In this document: positions 7,814 to 51,459 of the stretch, one piece after another
Layout: each line of letters begins with the position of its first letter
How positions within the stretch are numbered: the first letter of the stretch is position 1
Virus record (IMG/VR): IMGVR_UViG_3300045988_106448
Reading direction: 5' to 3' (one strand)
DNA length: 64,000 bases
Source: a virus
Position numbers and translations under genes: made by a program
Notes under the pieces: model-generated
Databases searched by the model: none
What the model saw: only the letters and a program-made list of their open reading frames with translations
What the model was told of the DNA's origin: nothing

Positions 7814-8760
7814 TGTTATTCACGGCGCAGGACATACAAAAGATTCTTACCGACGTAGATTTTGCGGTGGCTAAGATGGTAGCAGAAACGTTAGGCAAAG
7901 ATTACCTTTCTGCTTATGATATCGCCGTGCTGAAACGTAAAGGGGTGGATTTGCTAAAACTTATTCCTAAGTTTCCTACACATTATCAATCTTTTCTTTT
8001 TGGTCGTGTTTCAGCCGCTCTAGGAGCGACTGCCGCCGCCAAAATAACTTACCCGGAGTTCGTGGCGTTTATGTCTAAGATGGGCGGTTTGACCCCTTCT
8101 TCGTTTGATTTGGCTATGTATAAAGTAGCCGCAAACAAGACGTACACGCATATAAAGAATTTGGGGGAGAGAATTAAAAATGACGTGGGGGCTTCAGTGG
8201 CTTCGGAACAGCTTGTTTTCGTGCAAGCCCAAGAGAGGGCTAAAACGGAAGAGGCAATTCACGATGAGATTCTTGATGGGGTTGTTGAGCAACGTTCCGT
8301 TAAGAAGATCACCGCCAATATAGCTAATCAGATGGAGAATTGGGGGAGAGATTGGGGTAGAATAGTGGAAACTGAACATCAGGATGTGTTTAACGTGGGT
8401 CGAGCCACGTATTTCATGTCAGAAGATGATGATCCTTTGGTTTACTTTGACGTGTTTCCGGGAGCGTGCAAGCATTGTATTAGATTGTTCCTAACGGCAG
8501 GTATTGGAAGCAAACCAAAAGTTTTTAAACTTTCTACCTTGTTAGCCAACGGGACAAATTACGGGGTGAAGGCGCAAAACTGGAAAGCAACGATTCACCC
8601 CGTGCATCCCTTTTGTAGATGTGATTTGCGTTACGTGCCAAAGGGGTATGTATGGGATGATAAGAAAGGGGAATTCGTTCCACCTGAAAATTTCGAAAGA
8701 ACTGTACCTCGAAAGAGTAAGGTTAAGATAACTATCGGTGAAAAAGAATATTTAGTATAA
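7813..8760 (+). CDS. Minor head protein, Phage_Mu_F / SPP1 gp7-like head morphogenesis protein
   Basis: C-terminal 'HPVHPFCRCDL' matches the H-x-x-C-R-C signature of the Mu F family. Position directly after the portal is typical. Confidence 0.55.
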   Translation: MLFTAQDIQKILTDVDFAVAKMVAETLGKDYLSAYDIAVLKRKGVDLLKLIPKFPTHYQSFLFGRVSAALGATAAAKITYPEFVAFMSKMGGLTPSSFDLAMYKVAANKTYTHIKNLGERIKNDVGASVASEQLVFVQAQERAKTEEAIHDEILDGVVEQRSVKKITANIANQMENWGRDWGRIVETEHQDVFNVGRATYFMSEDDDPLVYFDVFPGACKHCIRLFLTAGIGSKPKVFKLSTLLANGTNYGVKAQNWKATIHPVHPFCRCDLRYVPKGYVWDDKKGEFVPPENFERTVPRKSKVKITIGEKEYLV

Positions 8761-10088
8761 TGATTATGAATCTTAGAAAAATTTTAGGTTATCGCACAAC
8801 GGCAGAAAAGTTGGAAGATTACCGGGCTCTTAAAGAGCGTTTAAATGAATTAAGTGTCGTCGGGAAGGGTTTAGCTGATAAGTTTATGTTTCAGAAATCG
8901 ATGGTGGATGGAATTGAACTTATACCCGAAGCAAAGAGGGGGCAAGTGCTTGACAGTTATAAAACCTTCGTCCAAGAGCATTCTAAAGAAGTGGCTAAGG
9001 CAGTTTCTGAAAGGGAACGTATTCTTAAATCTATTGAGAAATACCGTAACGATCCAGAGATAAAAGATGCCTGCCAGAATATAGATACCATTGACACGGC
9101 TACCATTGCGTACCGGGCTGGAAATCTGAAAAAGGATGGGTATTTTACCCTGTTGAAGTCCCTAACGGGTGAACCCACGAAGTACGCTGATGTTATTGCT
9201 TTCAATAGGGATGGCAAAATGCTCGTGTTGCACCGGGTAACTGAATTGATGTGTAACGGTACGGTATGCGTGCCGGGTGGTCACGTTGATCCGGGTGAAG
9301 ATTTTTTGGTGGCGGCTTTACGTGAATTGAAAGAGGAAACTAATCTTGACCCGTTAGATGGTGGTATTGAGGAGTTGGGAGAATACCGTAGCGAGGATGC
9401 CCATATCAAGTATTACAAGATTTATGTTGACGAGTTGCAACCTGTAACTCTTGATGCTACCGAGCATTGTTTCTACGAGTGGATTGACATTGCTGAAATA
9501 CCGTTGAAACCATTCATATTCGATCAAGGGAAAAACATTTTGAAATTGTTAACCCCGGAAGGATTTGAAGAGAAGGTGACCCCATTGTTAAAGGCGTACC
9601 ACGAAGGCAGAATAGAGAAGGCTGCCTTTATACCTGCTTATTCTTTCATGCTTGCTAAAGCGTTAGGGGTTTCTACCGAGACAGAGGGTCGTTTAATGCC
9701 CGAATCTTTAGAGGGAAGCAACGGTAAGCGCAAGCGGGCGATAGTCCCTGTACGAGACCCTAAGAAGAACGTGGAGCGCATTTTAAAGGCAGTAAGCGGC
9801 GAGGCAGAATTGTATCTAAGCAAAAGCCTGAAATTGGAAAAGCCTTTCATTATCCATGAGGTAACGTACAAAAGAACTCCAGAGACCAATTATTTGACAG
9901 AATTGGAACTTGTTTACGAGGGTGATGAAGCCCAAGTGCGACAAGTGCTAAAAGTATTGAAAGATAATTTCTTGCGGGGCGATGGCGTTAAAGTTAAGAC
10001 AAGTCACGAAGAATTTCTGGCAGCTAACGAGCACGGTACAGATTACGTCGGTGATCCCATATTTGTGGAATTAGAAACCGTTGCGTAA
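8760..10088 (+). CDS. Nudix hydrolase domain protein, 442 aa, Nudix box at about residue 170
   Basis: 'GGHVDPGEDFLVAALRELKEETNL' fits the Nudix box G-x5-E-x7-REUxEExGU with G to N at one position. Embedded in the head module. Confidence 0.6.
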   Translation: MIMNLRKILGYRTTAEKLEDYRALKERLNELSVVGKGLADKFMFQKSMVDGIELIPEAKRGQVLDSYKTFVQEHSKEVAKAVSERERILKSIEKYRNDPEIKDACQNIDTIDTATIAYRAGNLKKDGYFTLLKSLTGEPTKYADVIAFNRDGKMLVLHRVTELMCNGTVCVPGGHVDPGEDFLVAALRELKEETNLDPLDGGIEELGEYRSEDAHIKYYKIYVDELQPVTLDATEHCFYEWIDIAEIPLKPFIFDQGKNILKLLTPEGFEEKVTPLLKAYHEGRIEKAAFIPAYSFMLAKALGVSTETEGRLMPESLEGSNGKRKRAIVPVRDPKKNVERILKAVSGEAELYLSKSLKLEKPFIIHEVTYKRTPETNYLTELELVYEGDEAQVRQVLKVLKDNFLRGDGVKVKTSHEEFLAANEHGTDYVGDPIFVELETVA

Positions 10089-10116
10089 TTTTGTGGACAA
10101 TTATAAATAAAAGGAT

Positions 10117-10797
10117 ATGTATAATCAACTCGAGAACGATTTTAATTTCTGGCTACCGATAGATGTTGCGAAATCGGAAGCCGAGGTGGCTACGGAATAC
10201 CCCCGTGGTGATGATCGTCGCTATGAGAATATGGTTTTCGAGGGGATTGCTAGTGATAATAGTAAAGATTTCCAAGGTGATTCAATGGAACCTAACGGGT
10301 TTGAAATTGATTACTTCTTGCGGCATGGGTTATTTAACCTTGACCACCTAACCACCAGAGCGAAAGAATTGAAAAGTAGATGGTGGATTGGTGAGCCAAT
10401 AGACGGTAAGATAGTTGATAACAAGTTTTGGGTACAAGGTAAACTTTGGAAAGATTCCCCAGAAGCTAGAGCGTTTTGGGATAAATGTATTGAGATGCGT
10501 GCGAGTGGGGCAACCCGCCGCCCCGGTATGTCAATAGAAGGTAGGGCACTTGAAAGAGACCCTAAAAATCCCAAGCATATAACCAAAGCGGTGATAAATA
10601 ATATTGCGTTGACAATGACCCCGGTCAATTTCAATTCATATTTAGATTTTGTGAAAGGCGTTCAGGTTCAGGATTTTATTCCTACGGGTGAAATTTTGAA
10701 AAGCCAACTTGAAAATCGGATTATGTACGAAACTGTCGTTGGAAATCGGCGTTTGGTAATTGATGCTGATTTTAACATACGTGAGGAGGCTCTATGA
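10117..10797 (+). CDS. Prohead maturation protease, HK97 / peptidase S78-like
   Basis: 'VFEGIASDNSKDFQGDSMEPNGF...HG..LDH..IGEP' and a later '...ALTMTPVN' resemble S78 family blocks. Sits between the minor head protein and the scaffold. Confidence 0.5.
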   Translation: MYNQLENDFNFWLPIDVAKSEAEVATEYPRGDDRRYENMVFEGIASDNSKDFQGDSMEPNGFEIDYFLRHGLFNLDHLTTRAKELKSRWWIGEPIDGKIVDNKFWVQGKLWKDSPEARAFWDKCIEMRASGATRRPGMSIEGRALERDPKNPKHITKAVINNIALTMTPVNFNSYLDFVKGVQVQDFIPTGEILKSQLENRIMYETVVGNRRLVIDADFNIREEAL

Positions 10798-10856
10798 TAA
10801 TCCGTTTTGATAGAAAGAAATTTTGTAATAATTTTAACCAGAAAAATTGACAAATT

Positions 10857-11708
10857 ATGTTGACGAAAGAACAAAAAGATGATGAGTTAATCAAATCAAT
10901 GCTTGTCAGTGGTTTTGAGGAAAGTCTCATTGAGTCTTGGATTCAGAATGGAACCTTGACCCTTCAGAAGTCTACTCAATATGGTCCGGATGATCATGGC
11001 GAGGGAGACCCCGGTGATACGAAAGAGAAACGTGCTGACAAAGGTACTGAAAAGCGTAAGAAAGAGGACGAAGAAGCTGACGAGGCTAAACGTTCTGAAG
11101 AAAAACGTGAAAAAGAAGCCGATAAGGTAGAAAAGGGCAACGGCGAAGAAGGCGATGGAGAAGGTGAAGACAAGGTTGACAAAGGTTGCGGTATGGGCGA
11201 TGGGAAACCGGGCGATCCGAACCAATTGGCAAAATCTTTAGGTTTTGACACCTTGTTGAAATCTATGGAAGATACGTTGTTGGCTAACCAAGCTAAGTCT
11301 CAAGAAGAGTTTGCTAAGTCTATTCCGGCTATGATTGAAACCGCCATGACTGCAATGTCTGAAAAGATTGAAAAATCTTTGGAAGGTATGCGTAACGCTA
11401 TTACCGTGATTGGTAATGCCGCTCCTAGATTTAAATCTGACATGAGCCAAGCCTTGATCGAAAAGAGCGTTGCTAACGGTGGTGGTGTACAGGACACTGA
11501 AGGAAAGACCGCTTTGAGCATCTCTAAAGACCGTCCGGTTGTGCGTGCGTTAATCATGAAATCCATTGAGGAGGAAGCAGACGAAAGTTTGAAGAAATCT
11601 TTGGAAAGTGATTCCTACGCTTACTTGACTGACCCGCTAGGTGGTGCAGTAGGTGAAAAGGCTGCGAAGTATCTTTACGACAAGAAAAATGTTCGCTTAG
11701 TGCAATAA
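10857..11708 (+). CDS. Putative scaffolding protein, highly charged and predicted helical
   Basis: K/E/D-rich low-complexity sequence located immediately upstream of the major capsid gene. Confidence 0.45.
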   Translation: MLTKEQKDDELIKSMLVSGFEESLIESWIQNGTLTLQKSTQYGPDDHGEGDPGDTKEKRADKGTEKRKKEDEEADEAKRSEEKREKEADKVEKGNGEEGDGEGEDKVDKGCGMGDGKPGDPNQLAKSLGFDTLLKSMEDTLLANQAKSQEEFAKSIPAMIETAMTAMSEKIEKSLEGMRNAITVIGNAAPRFKSDMSQALIEKSVANGGGVQDTEGKTALSISKDRPVVRALIMKSIEEEADESLKKSLESDSYAYLTDPLGGAVGEKAAKYLYDKKNVRLVQ

Positions 11709-40546: not shown

Positions 40547-41188
40547 ATGATTATGTTATATGATGAAGAAACTACTATAAAGATTGTTCTTCGATGTTAT
40601 GAATATCTCCAGATTAGAATGCGGGTACAACCTCGTTCTATAAACATGAAGACTCAGCAGCATCAAAAGTGGGTGAAGAAGTTTATCGCTAAACTGCCAC
40701 CTTCTGCCGGGGCTGATTTTATTTGGGACTTTTTATTGTTTCAGTTTTATATGTACGCCCGGCAAACACATAAGCAACCCCCTCTATGCTCGTGGTTTTT
40801 AATGCAGGAAGCGTGGAGAAGATATGAAGAGTATGAAGAAGGAGCGTTTTATTATTCTCGACTGTGGGGGTCAGAACAGAAATTCAGTTGCCCCGTTAAG
40901 AGCCACACGTATACCCCGGTAAAGCAAGAAGTTTTAGATAAGGAAAGACTGAGAATGTCAAGAATTTCTGGACCGAATTTTTGTGTTGCCAAGTATGGGG
41001 AAAAGGCATACGTTGAAGGTAGTGAAATGTGTGATAAATGTCCTTTTGAAAAGACGTGTTACACGTTGTTTTGCAACGAGGGTAATTTGTATCACAAATT
41101 AGAACAACTTCCTAATGATGTTTCTGGGAACGTGAAGTTGAGACCCGTTAATTCAAGCATAGCAGATTATGGAGAAGAAGATTTGTAG
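40547..41188 (+). CDS. Hypothetical Cys-rich protein, 213 aa from the ATG at 40547
   Basis: The ORF-track start at 40499 would place the terminator hairpin inside the coding region. The ATG at 40547 gives MIMLYDEETT... Cysteine cluster 'CDKCPFEKTCYTLFC'. Confidence 0.4.
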   Translation: MIMLYDEETTIKIVLRCYEYLQIRMRVQPRSINMKTQQHQKWVKKFIAKLPPSAGADFIWDFLLFQFYMYARQTHKQPPLCSWFLMQEAWRRYEEYEEGAFYYSRLWGSEQKFSCPVKSHTYTPVKQEVLDKERLRMSRISGPNFCVAKYGEKAYVEGSEMCDKCPFEKTCYTLFCNEGNLYHKLEQLPNDVSGNVKLRPVNSSIADYGEEDL

Positions 41189-41555
41189 CAAATGCGGACG
41201 TGAAAAGTACATCGTAAATAAAACGAAGTGCTTGTGCGATGAATGTAATTACAAGCGTTTGCACAATGGTTTGACACGATTTGAGATTGCCCGGCTACGG
41301 CAACAAGCCAAACCACCCAAGAAAAAGAAACCCACGGGTGAATTAGATCTCTTTAAAGAGATTTGGGCGGAACGCCCGCATATTTGTACCAAATGTGGGA
41401 AGCCTCTCGGTGCGACGTTAAAACCGATCTTTTTTAGTCACATAAAATCGAAAGGGGCTTACCCCGAATTGCGGTTAATGAAAACAAATATAGAACTCGT
41501 GTGTGCTGAATGTCATCAGATTTATGAATTTGGCTCACGGAAAAACTTACAATAA
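41169..41555 (+). CDS. HNH endonuclease, 128 aa
   Basis: Zinc-finger cysteines 'CSKCG...CLCDEC' and 'ICTKCGKP', plus 'FSHIKSKGAYPELRLMKTNIELVCAECHQ', an H-N-H core. Confidence 0.55.
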   Translation: MEKKICSKCGREKYIVNKTKCLCDECNYKRLHNGLTRFEIARLRQQAKPPKKKKPTGELDLFKEIWAERPHICTKCGKPLGATLKPIFFSHIKSKGAYPELRLMKTNIELVCAECHQIYEFGSRKNLQ

Positions 41556-41970: not shown

Positions 41971-42624
41971 ATGGACACAACAGTAAAGTACATTATTTGT
42001 GCCGATGTAGAGTCTGGTGGGCTCCCGAATAAGAACAAAAAGGCTTTTGACGATGTAGCACTCGCCGAGGTGGCTATGGTGGTAGTAGATTGTATTAATT
42101 TGGAAATTGTTACCGAATACAATGCGATTATCGCTCCTTATAAAGATGGGCTTGAATACTCTCCACAGGCTGAGGAAGTGCATGGATTGTCAGTTCAGCA
42201 CCTAACTGAAAATGGGGAAGACATCAAAACCGTGTACAAGGAAACGAAAGCCCTTCTCAAGAAATACGCCAATAAGAGAATAGGTGCTATTCTAGCCGGG
42301 CATAATTTTCAACTCTTTGATATTCCATTTTTTGAAGGTATGTTTGCCTTTAATAATGATGATTTGTGGGAATACGTGAAGTTTGTTGAAGATACCATGA
42401 AATTGAGTTGGTACCGGGGTTTGGAACAAGAGAATTACAAATTGGGAACGTGCTGTCGCAAAGAGGGTGTTGAATTGGTAAACGCTCACCGGGCGTTAGC
42501 CGATACCCGTGCGAATGCCGAATTACTTATCAAATATTTACAAATTTTCAGAGGGGACGGCGTGGCTAATACCGCCCCGGTTGAAGTGAAATCAAGGTTT
42601 AGAGAAACTTTTCAAATTGTGTAA
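41971..42624 (+). CDS. DnaQ-like 3'-5' exonuclease, DEDDh family
   Basis: Exo I 'IICADVESGG' (DxE), Exo II 'ILAGHNFQLFDIPFF', Exo III 'HRALADTRANAEL'. Confidence 0.7.
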   Translation: MDTTVKYIICADVESGGLPNKNKKAFDDVALAEVAMVVVDCINLEIVTEYNAIIAPYKDGLEYSPQAEEVHGLSVQHLTENGEDIKTVYKETKALLKKYANKRIGAILAGHNFQLFDIPFFEGMFAFNNDDLWEYVKFVEDTMKLSWYRGLEQENYKLGTCCRKEGVELVNAHRALADTRANAELLIKYLQIFRGDGVANTAPVEVKSRFRETFQIV

Positions 42625-42627
42625 GAG

Positions 42628-44727
42628 ATGATAAGATTTAATGAGGATGGGAAGCTGTCGCATAAGCAGCTTGACGCCGTTTTCAACACCACATTCAACG
42701 TCCTGGAGGCTCTCCCTACCAAGGCGTTGAATCAACTGTTGGACGGGTATGGCGGTGATGTCGATGAAATGATGAACGAGATATTTAAGCAAACGAATCA
42801 GGTGCTTAATTTAAACCATACCTTAGAAACCGAACGTCTTCAGTACGTTGATTGTCTTACGGAATCAATGGATGAAACGTTAAAGGTGAAATCTTACAAT
42901 TATTTCAAGACGACCATGCTGCCTTCCTTTAGACAAGGGTGGAGAAATTTAGAGTGGGGTAATATGGTGCAGTTATATCCTAGTAGTGCGTACCTTGCCG
43001 CTCGTTCACATGGAAAGTGTTTTATTGCGGGCACTCCAATTTTAATGGCAGATTTCACGGTTAAGAACGTGGAGGACATTTACCCCGGCATGGAAGTAAT
43101 GGGGATAGATTACACGCCTCGTAAAGTGCTTACCCGACATATAGGTGAGGGGCAAATGTTTAGGGTAGAACAAGAGAATGGCATCCCCTACGTGGTGAAT
43201 TTCTGGCACGTGATGTGTTTGTATGACACCAAGAAGAAAGCGTATGTGGAAATGCCGATGAACGAGTTTTATAAATACCCGGTAAAGAAGCAGCGTCGTT
43301 TTCAGGGGTATCGGGTATTTAGTCCGGACACACCAATCTTTGAAAAGAGTGATATTAGAGTGACTTGCATTGGTAGGGATTCTTATTACGGTTTCATGAC
43401 AGATGGTGATCATTTGTTCCAATTAGAAGATGGAACAGTGGTGCATAATTCTTACGAGTTTTGTTACGCCTTTCCATTGTGGAGGCTGTACACCTACAAA
43501 CGCCCCACGTTCATGAGGGCGGACACTCCCGATAATAAGAATCGTCAAGAAACTTGTATTATTACTAATACGGAAAAGTTGGGTAAGGAGCATATTGATA
43601 AAATTGCGGAGGAAATTAAAATTAATGATGCTCTAGGCTATCGTATTAACCCGAACGGAAAGGCGTCACTTGCTGCCACGGGTATAGAGGGGGAGAACGG
43701 TACGAAATTGCACTTGCGTGGAAAGGATGGGTTTATTCGTGGTTTGCACGTGGGGGCGGCGGTGAGCGATGACTTACCTGACGAATCCAGTATATACAGT
43801 TTGGAACAGCGTGAGAAATTGATTGATTTGTTCAACGGTACGATTTCACCTATTGTTGAGCCATACGGGTATAATCTTGTGGATGGAACCCCGTATCAAG
43901 AGAATGACCTTTACGCTAAGCTGAAAGAAGACCCCAAGTTTAAAGTATTCGAATACCCGGCAGTCTTTCCTGATGGACGTTTGCTCGCTCCCGACCGTTT
44001 CACGTTTAAGAAATTGATGGAGGAAAAACAATCATTGGGAACTATGGTGTTTAGCCGTGAGTATTTGGTTGTGCCAATCAGTGACGATAGTACGATATTC
44101 CCGTGGGAAATTCTTATGCGTAGCACGTATGGAATGGAAAAGTATATGTTAGTGAATAACATAGAATCTTTTCCTATTAAACTAGCCAAAGTAGTGATTG
44201 GGTGCGACTTTGCTGTTTCCGGTAACGTGGGGGCGGATTACACTTGTTATTCCGTTTGGGGTAAAGATTTGCTAGGGAATTATTATCTCCTATATATTTA
44301 TCGTGAAAAGGGGCTTTCTCATAACGAACAGTTGAATAAAATAATGCAGCTAGACCGTAGCTTTAAACCAAGCGAAATCGTAGTAGAAAATAACGGTTTC
44401 CAAAGCATACTTGCGGATATGGCACGTCAACAGGGTATTAGAAATATTACACCATTTACCACCACAGCCGGAAATAAGAAAGACTTACGTACTGGGTGGG
44501 TGTCGTTGGCAGCGTTGTTCGAGCGTGGGGCGATAAAATGCCCGTGGCATACCGATAGCCGTAAACAGGTCGAGCAAATGTTCGGGGAATTCAATAGTAT
44601 TGCATTTCGTCCGGACAAGGGAACGCTAGAAAGTATTAGCGGGCATGATGATACTGTGTCATCGGCGTTTATGGCTATTAACAAGTTGAGAGAGGGAACT
44701 ATTAGAGTAGTAGTAGATTCAATTTAA
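42628..44727 (+). CDS. terL: Terminase large subunit, ATPase plus RNaseH-like nuclease, interrupted by an in-frame mini-intein
   Basis: The P-loop 'AARSHGK[intein]SYEF' is reconstituted after intein removal. The C-terminal nuclease motifs 'VIGCDFAVSGN' and 'SGHDDTVSSAFMA' are typical of terminase nuclease domains. Confidence 0.75.
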   Translation: MIRFNEDGKLSHKQLDAVFNTTFNVLEALPTKALNQLLDGYGGDVDEMMNEIFKQTNQVLNLNHTLETERLQYVDCLTESMDETLKVKSYNYFKTTMLPSFRQGWRNLEWGNMVQLYPSSAYLAARSHGKCFIAGTPILMADFTVKNVEDIYPGMEVMGIDYTPRKVLTRHIGEGQMFRVEQENGIPYVVNFWHVMCLYDTKKKAYVEMPMNEFYKYPVKKQRRFQGYRVFSPDTPIFEKSDIRVTCIGRDSYYGFMTDGDHLFQLEDGTVVHNSYEFCYAFPLWRLYTYKRPTFMRADTPDNKNRQETCIITNTEKLGKEHIDKIAEEIKINDALGYRINPNGKASLAATGIEGENGTKLHLRGKDGFIRGLHVGAAVSDDLPDESSIYSLEQREKLIDLFNGTISPIVEPYGYNLVDGTPYQENDLYAKLKEDPKFKVFEYPAVFPDGRLLAPDRFTFKKLMEEKQSLGTMVFSREYLVVPISDDSTIFPWEILMRSTYGMEKYMLVNNIESFPIKLAKVVIGCDFAVSGNVGADYTCYSVWGKDLLGNYYLLYIYREKGLSHNEQLNKIMQLDRSFKPSEIVVENNGFQSILADMARQQGIRNITPFTTTAGNKKDLRTGWVSLAALFERGAIKCPWHTDSRKQVEQMFGEFNSIAFRPDKGTLESISGHDDTVSSAFMAINKLREGTIRVVVDSI
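43018..43449 (+). mobile_element. Mini-intein (Hint domain, 144 aa, no endonuclease domain) inserted in the terminase P-loop
   Basis: Begins 'CFIAGTPILMADF' (block A, Cys1) and ends 'DGTVVHN' followed by Ser+1 ('SYEF'). Excision rejoins GK-S of the Walker A motif. Confidence 0.75.
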
Positions 44728-44733
44728 AAGATT

Positions 44734-46314
44734 ATGAGTAAGAAAGTTGATGCCATTCTAAGCCCCACATTTGTCGAAGAAATGATGCGATTAGCATTCG
44801 CGAATAGAGAGTTCGCTAGGCTTGTCACGTCAAATATTGATTTAAGCAATTTCCCTAGGGAGTTAGGTGGCTGTAAAGCCATGTTAAAAGTATTGAATGA
44901 CAATATGAAGAACGGTCGCCATGCGACGTTCGGCATGGTTGAGATGGCTTATAGCAATAAAGAGGATGTCCTCAAAAAGATAAAGGATGTACAGGCGTTA
45001 CCCGTGCCAGAGGTAGAACCGATGGTGGATCAACTTGAAACCTTCCTAAAACGTCAGACGTTTGTTGCCACGCAACATGAAATTTCTGATATGTATAACG
45101 AAGGTAAACAAGAAGAAGCGATGGCGTTATTGGAGAAACGAATGATAGAAATCAATAGTTTCTCCCTAACTAAAGACAACGGGCAGTTTAGGCGTGTGTA
45201 CAGGGATTTTGATAAGAATATTAATACCATAGCCGCAAAAGCGGAAGACGAAACTCGTCGTTCGAAAATGCCTATCGGTATTACAACTATTGATGAGATT
45301 ACCGATGGGGGTATCCCCCGTCAGGACACGGTGTTAATGATCATGCGATCCGGTGTTGGTAAATCAACGGCGTTGAAATACATAGCGTGGTATAACACGG
45401 CGATAGCCCATAACCACGTTCTTCACGTGCAGTTAGAGGGTGGAGCGGATGAAGCGGTGGTAAAGTTTGACCAGATGATTGCCCATACCACCTATTCCAA
45501 AATTATGCGTGGTGATTTAACTGAGGAAACCCGGCTACGGGTGAAAGGGTTGATTAACCGGGCAAACCTTGTGAATAGTGATATTGACGTTTACGCCACG
45601 GAAGAGTTACTAGACCTCACGATTGGTGATCTAGTGCAGGTTATAGAGGATTACAAAAAGGAATACGGGTTTTACCCTGACCTCCTAACGTTGGATTCTA
45701 TAGACTTGTTATTGACGGGTGAAAGCCGCAAAATAGACTACGATCCCAACTTTATAAAATACCGCTTGCAAAAGTGTGCCCAACGGTTAAAAGATATTGC
45801 TAAGAAGTACGACATGGTTGTCGTGACAGCAACCCAAACCGGAGACGTGCCGTTTGAAGTATGGAACGATCCTAACCGGGTTATTACCCGTGCCAATACC
45901 GAAGGCGACCGTACATTGGTTAAGCCATTTTCATTCGTGTTAACGGGTAACGTTACGCTAGAGGAAGGAAAGAATAACATGATGCGGTTGTATTTTGATA
46001 AAATGCGTAATTACAAGAACAACGGTATTATAGTTAGAATTCCAACGAATTACGAGAATGGTTTCTTCTATGATATGGCACGTTCTTCTACATTGGAAAC
46101 CGTGTTGGACGTTTCAGCGTTAGAGAAACTAGAACGCCGGGGTAAAAATAAGGAAAGAGGGGTCAAAGAGGAGCGAGTAGAGATTCAACCGGGAGTGTAT
46201 GGCAGTAAGGTTGCCGACGGTGCGCCCGTGTCTAAAAGAGACTCTAGCGACGTTGTAGACGAACGTACCATGAAGGAATCATTTAAGGATTGGAATAAAC
46301 GCAATAGAAAATGA
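44734..46314 (+). CDS. DnaB-like replicative helicase, 526 aa
   Basis: Walker A 'MRSGVGKSTALKY'. Walker B-like 'LLTLDSIDLL' (compare DnaB 'LVVIDYLQL'). Has an N-terminal domain of about 180 aa. Confidence 0.55.
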   Translation: MSKKVDAILSPTFVEEMMRLAFANREFARLVTSNIDLSNFPRELGGCKAMLKVLNDNMKNGRHATFGMVEMAYSNKEDVLKKIKDVQALPVPEVEPMVDQLETFLKRQTFVATQHEISDMYNEGKQEEAMALLEKRMIEINSFSLTKDNGQFRRVYRDFDKNINTIAAKAEDETRRSKMPIGITTIDEITDGGIPRQDTVLMIMRSGVGKSTALKYIAWYNTAIAHNHVLHVQLEGGADEAVVKFDQMIAHTTYSKIMRGDLTEETRLRVKGLINRANLVNSDIDVYATEELLDLTIGDLVQVIEDYKKEYGFYPDLLTLDSIDLLLTGESRKIDYDPNFIKYRLQKCAQRLKDIAKKYDMVVVTATQTGDVPFEVWNDPNRVITRANTEGDRTLVKPFSFVLTGNVTLEEGKNNMMRLYFDKMRNYKNNGIIVRIPTNYENGFFYDMARSSTLETVLDVSALEKLERRGKNKERGVKEERVEIQPGVYGSKVADGAPVSKRDSSDVVDERTMKESFKDWNKRNRK

Positions 46315-47360: not shown

Positions 47361-47831
47361 ATGGAAAACGAATATCGTATTAGTCACGAACAGTTCCTAA
47401 TTAATCTTCAGTTAGAGTACCTAACTCATAGATTAAGATCATTGATTTACCGAACAGCGTCTTACGCTCAGGTGGCGGCAGATATAGCATCTAAGAAAAG
47501 ATCGAAGATAGAGGATTTGGGAAAGAAATTTGGGATACGGACAATCTTTAGTCCGGGCTTTGACGTATTAGGGTTTGTAAACTTATATTTCTGGTCGGGG
47601 CGGGGTTTACCGCACTTCCAATATAAGGATGAGGAACAAAGAAGAGTACAAGGTAATTATGACAAATGGTATATTTTGTTTCGTGGAACACGAGTGAAAT
47701 ATAAAGGCAGGAGAACCGAAGTTGTTTCGAATAATCCTGTCCGGAAAGAGGTAATCGTCAAGACTCTTTCTGGCAATCAATTGGCGAAATATAGTGAATT
47801 AACAATTAAAAAAGATTTCGAATGGATTTGA
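47361..47831 (+). CDS. Hypothetical protein, 156 aa
   Basis: ORF with ATG start. Confidence 0.4.
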   Translation: MENEYRISHEQFLINLQLEYLTHRLRSLIYRTASYAQVAADIASKKRSKIEDLGKKFGIRTIFSPGFDVLGFVNLYFWSGRGLPHFQYKDEEQRRVQGNYDKWYILFRGTRVKYKGRRTEVVSNNPVRKEVIVKTLSGNQLAKYSELTIKKDFEWI

Positions 47832-48076
47832 AAATTGTAAACCACAGTACACATGAATTGCCCGTGTACAAGACAAAAGATTCGGCAGGAGCCGATTTAA
47901 GAGCGTTCTTACCTGAAGAGAAAGTTATTTACCTGCAACCGGGGGAACGTCGATTAATCCCTACTGGATTACACATGGCTATTCCGGAGGGGATGGTAGG
48001 ATTTATTTGCCCTCGTAGCGGTATGGCGGTAAAACAAGGTTTGACCGTTATTAACGCTCCGGGAGTAATAGACGCT
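47822..48076 (+). CDS. dut: dUTPase exon 1 (motifs 1-2 and the first half of motif 3, ending ...GVIDA)
   Basis: 'SAGADLRA' (motif 1), 'CPRSGMAVKQGL' (motif 2), 'GVIDA' (start of motif 3). The reading frame then hits a stop 7 codons into the insertion. Confidence 0.75.
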
Positions 48077-48946
48077 AAACTTTTAATGACTGCCTAAGAT
48101 GTATCAAAGGTTCTTTATATTAATTTTGGTAACTTTGCATTCAAATAATAATGCTATGGGGAAATTTGATAGAGAACCAAATTGTCAATGTCCAATTTGT
48201 GGAATTAAAATGTGGGTTAAACCTTCTTCTTTAAGAAAGGCGAAACATGGGGTTTGTTGTTCTATGGAATGTTCTAGGAAATTACGTTCAAATTTTATGA
48301 CAGGTGTAGGGAATCATCAGTTTGGGTTGACAGGAAATTTGAATAGTTCCTTTAAACATAATGAGAAAATAAATTCGGCAGGTTATGTTATGGAAAATGT
48401 TCCTGGACACCCTAAAGGTGGAAAAATTCGAGAAAGGTCTAAAACAACTTATATTTTGAAACATAGATTAATTATTGAAAGAAATTGTGAAAAGTTTCCT
48501 CAAGAATTATTTGAAAATATAGGGGGTTGGATAGTTTTAAAAGATTGTTATGATGTTCACCATATAAATGAAGACAGAACTGACAATCGGTTAGAAAATC
48601 TTGAAATTTTAACTCGAGGTAAACATACTGCAATCCACAATTTAGAAAAGACAATTATAAGAGATGATACTACGGGTAGAATAATTGGTGTCTTTAAACG
48701 AGGTGAATTGCTGGGAAGTCCAGAGGTGGATAATCAGCAGCCAAGCATTAGTAGTAATACTTTTGAAGGTTCAACGACTAACAGCCGAATCCAAACAGAT
48801 AATGCTGAGGATAGTAATGCTGACACGAGTGCCTCGCCCCTATTTATAGGGTGAAGATATAGTCTGAACTTTGCAAATAACCTAAAAGTAAAGCAAAGAA
48901 ATAATAGGATAAAGAGCCTATTAGTGTAACAACTCCACATAAATTG
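48077..48946 (+). mobile_element. Group I intron-like intervening sequence of 870 nt carrying an HNH homing endonuclease ORF
   Basis: The 5' exon ends in U (gacgcT) and the insertion ends in G (aaattG). Precise joining recreates GVIDA|DYRGDV, dUTPase motif 3. The downstream exon has no ATG. Confidence 0.65.
48099..48854 (+). CDS. Intron-encoded HNH homing endonuclease (HNH_3-like), 251 aa. The true start is possibly the M at 48156.
   Basis: 'CQCPICG...CCSMEC' zinc finger and 'YDVHHINEDRTDNRLENLEILTRGKHTAIHN' HNH core. The C-terminal 70 aa may be read-through of the intron core. Confidence 0.65.
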   Translation: MYQRFFILILVTLHSNNNAMGKFDREPNCQCPICGIKMWVKPSSLRKAKHGVCCSMECSRKLRSNFMTGVGNHQFGLTGNLNSSFKHNEKINSAGYVMENVPGHPKGGKIRERSKTTYILKHRLIIERNCEKFPQELFENIGGWIVLKDCYDVHHINEDRTDNRLENLEILTRGKHTAIHNLEKTIIRDDTTGRIIGVFKRGELLGSPEVDNQQPSISSNTFEGSTTNSRIQTDNAEDSNADTSASPLFIG

Positions 48947-49141
48947 GATTACCGTGGAGACGTGGGTGTGCCTCTAATTAATTTGGGACAGGACGTTGAG
49001 AAAATTGAAGATGGCGACCGTGTGGCACAAATTGTTTTCGTGCCATTCGTGCAGGCGAATTTTCAGGTGGTAGCAACCGAAGCTGATCTTGGAGAAACTG
49101 AACGTGGTCAAGGAGGATTTGGACATACCGGGAAGAATTGA
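48947..49141 (+). CDS. dut: dUTPase exon 2 (second half of motif 3, motifs 4-5)
   Basis: 'DYRGDVGV' completes motif 3. 'RVAQIVF' is motif 4. 'RGQGGFGHTG' is motif 5. In frame with exon 1 after removal of 48077-48946. Confidence 0.75.
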   Translation, partial: DYRGDVGVPLINLGQDVEKIEDGDRVAQIVFVPFVQANFQVVATEADLGETERGQGGFGHTGKN

Positions 49142-49943: not shown

Positions 49944-50674
49944 TGAGCCCCACTATATATCTAGTCAAAGGTATTTCAGGAAGTGGCAAATCAACAAGGG
50001 TTTACCTATTCTTGGAATACCTTGAATCATTAGGGCTAGAATTGACACCCTTTAAATTTAAAACACTTGACGGAAAAGAAAAGGAAGTAGGAGTTTATTG
50101 TGAGGATTTGGATTTGATTTTCGTTGGGAAGTGGTACGAAAATGGCGGTGTACGCCGTTGGCAGGGGCACGACAGTATGACGGGGCGGTTATGTCATTCT
50201 GAAGGGCTTAGCTACTTCCTAAAGAGTGTTGCACAAAAGGGTCACAGTGTTGTTTTGGATGGTGCGGGTACGACGGCAACATGGCGGCTTAGACCCAAAT
50301 TCCTATTTGAGGACAACGGGTTTAAGAGTATTGTTCATATACGGTATGATTACAAGCCGGAGCAGTTGCAAGAATATTATGACCGGATCGAATACCGTTC
50401 TGGCGAGCCTCCCAAGGGGGATAGTATGTGGCGTAAAAGTAAAACCTTCCTACATGACTATCAAAAGGCTGTAGAAGAGGCTAAGATGGTTGTATCGGCA
50501 GGTTGCCACGTGTCTTTACATGATGAACCATACGATACCCCGGTTTACGATTTGGGTGTTAGAATTTTGGAGCACGTGGGTTTGGAAGACGTGCAAGATG
50601 AGTTCATCGCTTATTGTCAAAATTCAGATTATCTAATTAAAAACTCCTTTAATGAATTCCAGAAAATAAAATGA
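49943..50674 (+). CDS. P-loop nucleotide or nucleic-acid kinase, 243 aa. Candidates are a dNMP kinase or a 5-hmdU DNA kinase-like enzyme.
   Basis: Walker A 'VKGISGSGKSTRV' at residues 8-20. Apparent GTG start overlapping the upstream TAG (no in-frame ATG before the P-loop). Size matches T4 gp1-type dNMP kinases. Confidence 0.5.
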   Translation: MSPTIYLVKGISGSGKSTRVYLFLEYLESLGLELTPFKFKTLDGKEKEVGVYCEDLDLIFVGKWYENGGVRRWQGHDSMTGRLCHSEGLSYFLKSVAQKGHSVVLDGAGTTATWRLRPKFLFEDNGFKSIVHIRYDYKPEQLQEYYDRIEYRSGEPPKGDSMWRKSKTFLHDYQKAVEEAKMVVSAGCHVSLHDEPYDTPVYDLGVRILEHVGLEDVQDEFIAYCQNSDYLIKNSFNEFQKIK

Positions 50675-51459
50675 AATTTCGAGGGCGTATATATTGTATA
50701 GAATGTACTGTAAATCATAAGTGGTATATTGGTCAAACTTCTAGAAGTTTACAAGTTCGGATGAATGGGCATATCAAGTTAGCTCTGAGGGGAGGGGAAT
50801 TTGCTTTAAGTCGTGCTATACGAAAATACGGCGTTGAAAACTTTGTAATCGAGGAAATCATGTGGGTTGAGGCTCCTAATAAACATTCTCTAAAACAGAA
50901 ACTCGATTTTCTGGAACGCCATTTTATAGCCCGTTACGACACGAAACATACGGGCTATAATATGACGGAAGGAGGAGAAGGTGTATTAGGAATTCAATTT
51001 GATGAAGAGTCTAGAATAAAAATGTCTGAATCTGCTAAAAATAGATGCGATGAAAATTTTAGAAGAAGACAATCTATTGTTGCTAAACGTTTATGGCAAA
51101 AGGAATCTTTTCAAAAGTTAAGGTCAGAAGCCGCCCATTTGAATTTATTAAATAAAGAAGTTCAGAAAAAGATGGGTTTGGCTCGCCGAGGATTAAAGTT
51201 TACTGAAGAGCATAAGAAGAAAATAGGTTTAGCCGTAAGCGGGGAAAGGAATGGTATGTATGGGAAAAGCCACCCAAAAGAATTTATTGAAAAATTTACT
51301 AAGAAAGTTTATCAATATACTCCAGAGGGGGTTTTAGTGAAAGAATGGTTTTCTATTATTGATATTAAAAGAGAATTGAAAATAGGCAGAAAATGTTTAA
51401 AGAAAGCTATTGCAAATCAATTTATTTATCATGGTTATATTTGGAAATTTAAAAGATGA
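50671..51459 (+). CDS. GIY-YIG homing endonuclease, free-standing, with NUMOD-like C-terminal DNA-binding repeats
   Basis: 'GRIYCIECTVNHKWYIGQTSRSLQVRMNGH' (GIY...YIG...R...H) and 'GYNMTEGGEG'. C-terminal 'KMSESAKNR', 'KIGLAVSGERNGMYGKSH'. ATGA overlap with the upstream gene. Confidence 0.7.
   Translation: MKFRGRIYCIECTVNHKWYIGQTSRSLQVRMNGHIKLALRGGEFALSRAIRKYGVENFVIEEIMWVEAPNKHSLKQKLDFLERHFIARYDTKHTGYNMTEGGEGVLGIQFDEESRIKMSESAKNRCDENFRRRQSIVAKRLWQKESFQKLRSEAAHLNLLNKEVQKKMGLARRGLKFTEEHKKKIGLAVSGERNGMYGKSHPKEFIEKFTKKVYQYTPEGVLVKEWFSIIDIKRELKIGRKCLKKAIANQFIYHGYIWKFKR

Follow-up and report, generated by a model that had tools for sequence, protein, structure and literature searches.

The 64,000-nucleotide (nt) sequence of IMG/VR virus record IMGVR_UViG_3300045988_106448, referred to here as the window, contains a gene for a phage large terminase subunit (TerL), the Walker A motif, or P-loop, of which is interrupted by 144 amino acids (aa). 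The inserted segment is very probably a class 1 mini-intein of the Hom_end_hint subfamily, which includes the VMA1 and Prp8 inteins, and it is predicted to splice itself out of the terminase. Intein residues are numbered from Cys1, and a slash between two residues marks an insertion point. The features of the gene are as follows.

42628..44727, plus strand: TerL precursor open reading frame, 699 aa plus stop; N-extein, mini-intein and C-extein in one reading frame
42628..43017, plus strand: N-extein, aa 1-130; its C-terminal end is the first part of Walker A
42997-43017, plus strand: first part of Walker A, A124-A-R-S-H-G-K130, from the alignment to T7 gp19 AFRGIGK (4bij, E 3.4e-8)
43018..43449, plus strand: very probable class 1 mini-intein, 144 aa (TerL aa 131-274), 16.9 kDa, from Pfam, the PDB profile search, the AlphaFold2 model and empty alleles
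43018..43056, plus strand: block A with the Cys1 nucleophile (TerL C131), CFIAGTPILMADF, aligned to PI-SceI CFAKGTNVLMADG
43198..43209, plus strand: block B, N61-F-W-H64 (TerL aa 191-194), an Asn variant of TxxH, aligned to PI-SceI N-A-T-H
43384..43449, plus strand: blocks F and G, YYGFMTDGDHLFQLEDGTVVHN, with D131-H132, His143 and the terminal Asn144 (TerL N274), aligned to PI-SceI YYGITLSDDSDHQFLLANQVVVHN
43450..43452, plus strand: Ser+1 (TerL S275), the predicted C-extein nucleophile and the Ser of Walker A GK-S; empty-site homologs read K-S
43450..44724, plus strand: C-extein, aa 275-699, holding the remainder of the ATPase plus an RNase H-like nuclease domain
43756-43788, plus strand: Walker B (...VSDD), from the alignment to T7 gp19
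43879-43896, plus strand: C-motif VDGTPY, from the alignment to T7 gp19
44197-44685, plus strand: RNase H-like nuclease domain, aa 524-686, the Terminase_6C match

The 699-aa protein matches PHROG 38, 'terminase large subunit', with an expectation value (E) of 3e-46, and its C-terminal part matches the Pfam family Terminase_6C with 43 bits (cut-off 22.6). Terminase_6N was found on the spliced sequence at E 0.097 only, and an NCBIfam search gave sub-threshold matches only. The spliced window TerL, a second spliced extein and five homologs that naturally lack the intein were combined into an extein profile. In the PDB this profile finds the large terminase gp19 of phage T7 (4bij, E 3.4e-8). The family motif AAR-x-x-GKS-F lies opposite T7 AFRGIGKSF, and the DD of Walker B and the GTP of the C-motif are in register with the DD and GTP of gp19. 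The nuclease domain of the profile matches further phage terminase large-subunit chains, 5tge and 5m1f. The protein has both parts of a large terminase, an N-terminal ASCE ATPase with Walker A, Walker B and C-motif, and a C-terminal RNase H-like nuclease. On these alignments the host protein is a T7-like TerL of the Terminase_6 group. A megablast search of the gene against the phage collection gave no match, and the informative search was at the protein level. The identical 699-aa protein (P0001) is found on public contigs of up to 113.8 kb, and in public sources it is called 'phage terminase large subunit-like protein' or 'hypothetical protein', or has no name.

Translation of positions 43018-43449 (+) gives CFIAGTPILMADF...LEDGTVVHN, 144 aa in frame within the 699-aa reading frame, preceded by ...AYLAARSHGK and followed by SYEFCYAFPLW. 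By calculation, the intein has a mass of 16.9 kDa, the precursor one of 80.2 kDa and the 555-aa spliced product one of 63.3 kDa. Pfam Hom_end_hint (PF05203) matches the insert alone at E 3.8e-13 with 50.4 bits against a cut-off of 32.1, whereas no endonuclease family is found in the 144 aa at E<=1. When the single insert sequence is used to search the PDB, PI-SceI, the VMA1 intein of S. cerevisiae, is found at E ~1e-6. With the family profile, VMA1 and Prp8 inteins are the exclusive matches; their E values lie between 5e-18 and 3.5e-15, and the alignment takes in all of blocks A, B, F and G. At the ends of the PI-SceI alignment CFIAGTPILMADF is opposite CFAKGTNVLMADG, and YYGF..DGDHLFQLEDGTVVHN is opposite YYGITLSDDSDHQFLLANQVVVHN.

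The assignment to class 1 is based on four properties. Position 1 is a nucleophile, Cys131 of TerL. Block B has its invariant His, with Asn for Thr (Ser in the related sequence L002). Block G reads H273-N274/S275. The insertion is in frame at a conserved site of a host protein that has uninterrupted homologs. Class 3, defined as having no position-1 nucleophile and as initiating splicing from the block F Cys of a W-C-T triplet, was rejected: Cys1 is present and invariant, and block F (YYGF..DGDH) has no conserved Cys, position 128 being Thr in the window. No second related intein was found in the ~64-kb window, and none of the ten largest other window proteins contains a Hint domain. The composition profile over the intein has no anomaly in GC content or skew. 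Base composition shows no sign of a recent horizontal arrival and is uninformative beyond that.

A model of the insert was calculated with AlphaFold2 from an alignment of 23 family inteins. It has a mean predicted local distance difference test score (pLDDT) of 96.2 and a predicted template modeling score of 0.88; a single-sequence AlphaFold run with a pLDDT of 31.8 was discarded. The predicted fold is confidently assigned as the Hint horseshoe, a pseudo-two-fold β structure. Foldseek listed 50 matches in the PDB, all of them inteins or other Hint domains. The best is the Prp8 intein 6mwy (TMq 0.88, TMt 0.90, root-mean-square deviation 2.4 Å), and Prp8 6mx6 has E 1e-13. The Prp8 matches as a group have TMq 0.84-0.88 and TMt 0.85-0.90 at 26% identity, and domain I of PI-SceI is next. 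The linker that connects blocks B and F in the model consists of about 30 residues and is helical (H81-86, H89-92). The model is thus a Hint fold with a short helical linker and without an endonuclease domain, as is expected of a mini-intein.

A first-pass annotation of the window, made from its letters only, had named the reading frame a large terminase, which the Terminase_6C and PHROG 38 matches bear out. It had also placed a 144-aa insert at 43018-43449 with Cys131, Asn274 and Ser275 at the junctions, and the translation agrees exactly. That the insert is an intein had been proposed from Cys1 in block A and from VVHN followed by Ser in block G; the Hom_end_hint match (from a Hint-profile hidden Markov model search, which had been suggested as a check), the PI-SceI alignment and the Hint model lead to the same assignment. 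The remark that the insert is too short for a homing endonuclease agrees with the endonuclease-free Pfam result and the short linker of the model.

By alignment of the extein profile to T7 gp19, the insertion point separates Lys130 from the Walker A Ser (A-ARSH-GK/S), where the annotation had put it. The motif had been called 'deviant', but A-ARSH-GK-S fits the canonical [AG]x4GK[ST]. The closest cultured relatives are Bacteroides phages DAC19, DAC20, DAC22 and others, the match to which is in two pieces that cover 79% of the query. The DAC19 TerL is 37% identical to that of the window and is annotated 'hypothetical protein'. This protein, gp237, has 555 aa and reads AARGHSK/SFCFSYAYPLW, colinear with K/SYEFCYAFPLW of the window. 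Because of this length and colinearity, the segment missing from DAC19 is exactly the 144 residues. The lengths given earlier for the spliced product and the precursor, 555 and 699 aa, are those computed, and the former is also the length of the intein-free DAC19 protein.

Further empty sites were sought in IMG/VR by means of a degenerate DNA pattern that encodes AR-x3-K-S-[FY]-x-[FW]-x-[FY]-x-[FY]-P-L-W. All of the 22 loci found are TerL homologs. Each aligns to the spliced extein as a single high-scoring segment pair at 30-57% identity, and 20 of the 22 cross the junction without a gap. Together with DAC19, 23 homologous TerLs therefore have an uninterrupted K-S. The exteins of the intein-bearing L002 share 73.8% identity with an empty-site TerL (L010/L023), but only 68.9% with those of P0108 and 57.5% with those of the window, both of which bear the intein. 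The presence of the intein is thus patchy even within the intein-bearing group, and this distribution implies precise loss or repeated gain.

Conservation was analyzed in the best 120 of ~950 TerL homologs from a collection of 5.8 billion proteins. All 120 carry Hom_end_hint; most are 697-705 aa long, with whole-protein identity down to 55% and extein identity to the window down to about 59% among the intein-bearing homologs. Cys1, the terminal HN and Ser+1 are present in 119 of 119 parsed alleles. No variation is seen among the 83 distinct mini-intein alleles at C1, N61, H64, G125, F126, D129, D131, H132, H143 or N144, in contrast to the freely varying linker that joins blocks B and F. Intein identity follows extein identity (r = 0.91), with a mean of 66% versus 75%, a relationship that indicates vertical co-descent with somewhat weaker constraint on the intein. 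Between the window and the contigs L025 and L026, which are ~97% identical to it, the intein differs by 16 synonymous codon changes and one non-synonymous change, and the C-extein by 26-30 and one, respectively. The intein is thus under strong purifying selection.

Two homologs, P0106 and P0107 (903 and 901 aa), have a much longer intein with LAGLIDADG_3 and Hom_end domains at the same K/S site. The intein of P0106 is 349 aa long and that of P0105 (692 aa) is 138 aa long, yet the exteins of the two are 100% identical (554/554) and the splicing blocks match. Judged from these sequences, the pair is a very recent endonuclease deletion. Most of the ~211 extra residues of P0106 (~192) fall into one gap opposite residues ~107-108 of the window intein in a pairwise alignment, a position that adjoins the loop 102-106 of the AlphaFold2 model. 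Since a longer LAGLIDADG version occupies the same site in a sister lineage, the mini form arose by loss of the endonuclease, and the window mini-intein is thus an old endonuclease-less descendant that has lost homing. At this one site the TerL family displays empty, endonuclease-bearing, freshly endonuclease-deleted and long-fixed mini-intein states.

What is established here comprises the sequence, the fold and the exact site, along with empty alleles, conservation and the pattern of selection. From them we infer the splicing chemistry and the dependence of the ATPase on splicing. An N-S acyl shift at Cys1, assisted by Asn61 and His64 of block B, would be followed by trans-esterification onto the hydroxyl of Ser+1. 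Asn144 would then cyclize with the help of His143, and an O-N shift would complete the reaction. The intein (16.9 kDa) would be set free, and the exteins would be joined into a TerL of 555 aa and 63 kDa with an intact Walker A, in which Lys130 is directly followed by the C-extein tryptic peptide that starts at Ser275, SYEFCYAFPLWR. The 80-kDa precursor cannot have a P-loop, its GK and S being 144 residues apart, and the ATPase should therefore be inactive until splicing has taken place. The +1 nucleophile and the P-loop Ser are one and the same residue, which is why K/S or K/T is the 'classic' P-loop intein site (PMC5050341). With its LAGLIDADG endonuclease lost, the element would no longer home and would persist by vertical descent, kept splicing-competent because TerL is essential. 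The mini-intein is almost certainly splicing-competent.

Several points weigh against this interpretation. The case for splicing of this TerL is indirect, assembled from sequence, fold, selection and the fixation of the element in an essential active site in many genomes. Block B has Asn in place of the usual Thr, although the VMA1 intein, which splices, has the same change. No second TerL is present in the ~64-kb window, which covers only part of a genome of ~113 kb. The assignment of the host comes solely from distant similarity to Bacteroides phages and from human-gut sources.

Other explanations of the insert are much less probable. It can hardly be an ordinary lineage-specific insertion domain of the terminase, because it has the Hint fold and belongs to a Pfam intein family, because homologs of up to 57% identity lack exactly these residues, and because C1 and the HN-S junction are invariant wherever it is present. 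The first-pass annotation had said that homologs retaining residues 131-274 without C1 and HN-S would speak for such a domain. The opposite is seen: there are homologs without the insert, and those with it have invariant junction residues. Pfam, the DAC19 and IMG/VR empty sites, allele conservation and Foldseek together already refute the ordinary domain. Slightly less remote, and still very improbable, is a Hint autoprotease of the BIL or Hedgehog kind that would cut TerL in two without ligation. BIL2 (E 2.7e-7) and Hedgehog (E 2.9e-6) are indeed among the weaker Foldseek matches, but true inteins are better by 6-7 orders of magnitude. The element has the full intein set of Cys1, H-N and +1 Ser, it lies in frame within a motif whose halves need joining, and the P-loop is continuous in empty alleles. 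A BIL or Hedgehog domain was rejected as an assignment, since the HN/S junction is invariant and the element is embedded in Walker A. A degenerate Hint insertion that has ceased to splice and is retained in the mature terminase as an accessory domain is improbable as well. The lack of an endonuclease is in keeping with it, and otherwise nothing specific is. If it were retained, an insert between the Walker A Lys and Ser would preclude nucleotide binding, every catalytic residue is invariant in 83 alleles, and homologs function without the insert.

The remaining alternative is compatible with a splicing mini-intein and adds a function to it. In this unlikely but more plausible proposal, the intein is a domesticated conditional switch, kept for more than the difficulty of losing it precisely, with splicing gated for example by redox state, metals or DNA, so that the packaging ATPase is activated at a set time or according to the environment. 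The presence of the mini-intein in all of the best 120 homologs and the strong purifying selection on it are in its favor. Cys67 is conserved in at least 90% of alleles and Cys is found at position 128 in 72 of 83; in principle, they could form a disulfide that traps Cys1. For P-loop DnaB inteins and Prp8 inteins there are documented cases of conditional splicing (discussed in PMC6805012). However, any intein that sits in an essential active site should show purifying selection on its splicing residues, which is therefore no indication of an added function. The window allele has Thr, not Cys, at position 128. Moreover, the empty-site L010/L023 TerL nests among intein-bearing lineages, and the intein is therefore dispensable. 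A more specific and somewhat more doubtful version is that the endonuclease-free intein has been kept throughout the clade as a post-translational gate on the packaging motor, either as a redox or metal trap (Cys1-Cys67/Cys128) in an anaerobic host, or by way of a precursor that hides the ATPase fold from terminase sensors of the host; no data require it.

TerL has a second intein site, which is vacant in the window.

43887..43888, plus strand: empty second intein site, 'site b', VDG/TPY in the C-motif; occupied in L025 and L026

In spliced TerL, site b is 145 codons downstream of the P-loop site (site a). In L025 (11261-12523) and L026 it is occupied by a clean 1,263-nt, 421-codon LAGLIDADG intein (CVAPDT...VSHN), while the exteins are ~100% identical to those of the window in protein and ~97% identical in DNA. 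A site-b intein of 363-427 aa is present in 15 of the 116 mini-intein-bearing homologs that were compared. This distribution suggests ongoing homing in this phage population.

The phage is uncultured and has a genome of ~113 kb; it probably comes from the gut and infects Bacteroidota. The window is one co-oriented array of phage genes, including those for a portal, an SU10-type major capsid protein (MCP), List-Bact-repeat fibres, a DnaB-like ATPase and Pol III alpha. An RNase_T-type 3'-5' exonuclease gene (41971-42624) ends 4 nt before the TerL start codon. About 1 kb upstream of TerL there is an HNH-like reading frame (41169-41555, 128 aa), which scores 20.4 bits with Pfam HNH, just under the cut-off of 21.4. 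HNH proteins adjoining terminases are known packaging cofactors in some phages.

Other mobile elements are present in the window and its relatives. In L002 (MT835760.1), a contig of a related gut phage, the DnaB-like ATPase gene adjacent to TerL (8089-10614, 841 aa) has an insert of ~315 aa with LAGLIDADG_3 and Hom_end at its P-loop. The insert reads GTGK/ALTLDSKILTP...FIVTHN/T, and its first residue, Ala rather than Cys or Ser, suggests a non-class-1 (Ala1) intein. The homolog in the window (44734-46314, 526 aa) has an uninterrupted GVGKST. An insertion of 870 nt at 48077-48946 splits the dUTPase gene (exons 47822-48076 and 48947-49141) inside GVIDA/DYRGD. Rfam detects a group I intron (RF00028) in it at 48647-48888 (+) with 58.7 bits (gathering score 50), and it holds a 251-aa reading frame (48099-48854) with an HNH-like motif. 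The intron is precisely absent from L025 and L026, which are ~97-98% identical; the joined exons encode a 149-aa dUTPase.

The dUTPase gene is part of a region at ~47.8-53.5 kb that, according to the annotation of the syntenic L025 and L026, encodes dUTPase/DCD, HMUD2, HMUDK_hel, a thymidylate-synthase-like protein and a YfbR-like HD phosphohydrolase. This gene set suggests that the DNA of the phage carries modified thymidine. A free-standing GIY-YIG/NUMOD3 endonuclease gene lies between HMUD2 and HMUDK in the window (50671-51459) and in L025 (18437-19225), whereas in L026 a GIY-YIG gene (10264-11082) follows HMUDK. Homing endonuclease genes thus occupy alternative positions in the thymidine-hypermodification cluster.

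Inteins at P-loops of terminases are a recurrent phenomenon, as the first-pass annotation had stated. The TerL1-a inteins of mycobacteriophages are inserted at this 'classic' P-loop site, between the Walker A Lys and a Thr or Ser nucleophile (Kelley et al. 2016 mBio, PMC5050341). Splicing was argued to be necessary there for the active site and the pentamer, and five other TerL inteins were experimentally shown to splice (Kelley et al., PMC5050341). Inteins in the C-motif of Terminase_6-type TerL (TerL6-f) are also known in mycobacteriophages (PMC5050341). The window intein has the same location as TerL1-a, between the Walker A Lys and the following Ser nucleophile. However, the TerL of those Actinobacteria phages is of the Terminase_1 type and not T7-like with Terminase_6C, as it is in this probable Bacteroidota gut phage, and the window intein is of the VMA1/Prp8-like Hom_end_hint kind without an endonuclease; the two were likened by description, not by sequence.

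The best sequence match in the PDB is the VMA1 intein (PI-SceI; 1gpp, 1dfa, 1vde), with E 5e-18 for the family profile. The two have in common CF-x-GT-x-(I/V)-LMAD, N-x-x-H with Asn, and YYG...D-H-x-F-x-L...VVHN. VMA1 has N76 where Thr is usual in block B (PMC6805012). Unlike the window intein, PI-SceI is 454 aa long and also comprises a LAGLIDADG endonuclease and a region for DNA recognition, and it is a eukaryotic, nuclear element the host protein of which is a V-ATPase subunit. The best structural matches, the Cryptococcus Prp8 mini-inteins (6mx6, 6mwy; PMC6805012), are likewise endonuclease-free and have a remnant linker between blocks B and F, but their block B is T-x-x-H and their host protein is the fungal spliceosomal Prp8.

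In the Delta group of crAss-like phages, which are gut phages of Bacteroidota, TerL 'typically contains an intein', sometimes two of the 'Hint-Hop type', and group I introns also occur (Yutin et al. 2021, PMC7886860). The phage group described here similarly has one- and two-intein TerL alleles and a group I intron. By gene content the window phage is not crAss-like, with Pol III alpha and an SU10-type MCP, and with Baseplate_J on the related contig L025. The window intein also lacks the 'Hop' endonuclease, and the likeness is one of description, sites aside. In actinobacteriophages no phage protein is invaded more often than TerL, in which 293 inteins are catalogued, and phage C3PO has a class 1 intein of 134 aa (bioRxiv 10.1101/2025.01.02.630785). 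Both this intein and that of the window are very small class 1 inteins in TerL; C3PO belongs to another phage group, and the comparison concerns size and class, not site or subfamily.

The intein profile has a wide distribution. In a library of 1.84 billion proteins it matches 8,056 representatives at 50% identity, 6,391 of them at E<=1e-10. All of the ten top-scoring representatives carry Hom_end_hint, and several have multiple inteins or endonuclease domains. The recognizable exteins among these ten, an RNA polymerase Rpb1-like subunit, a DnaB-like helicase, AAA_25 and ResIII, include none related to terminases. A word-indexed search with the 144-aa intein gave a single match, which is due to the limited sensitivity of that search and not to rarity.

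P-loop inteins of TerL were documented before, and only the host lineage, an uncultured phage of ~113 kb, is new. The example does not change the knowledge of inteins or terminases. The 144-aa Ser+1 VMA1/Prp8-like mini-intein may be of minor interest as a protein-engineering scaffold. Recognition of the intein reveals the actual 555-aa TerL, a point of importance for the TerL-based phylogeny and taxonomy of this group of abundant uncultured gut phages. The occurrence of several site states side by side makes this TerL family a convenient system for the study of intein persistence.

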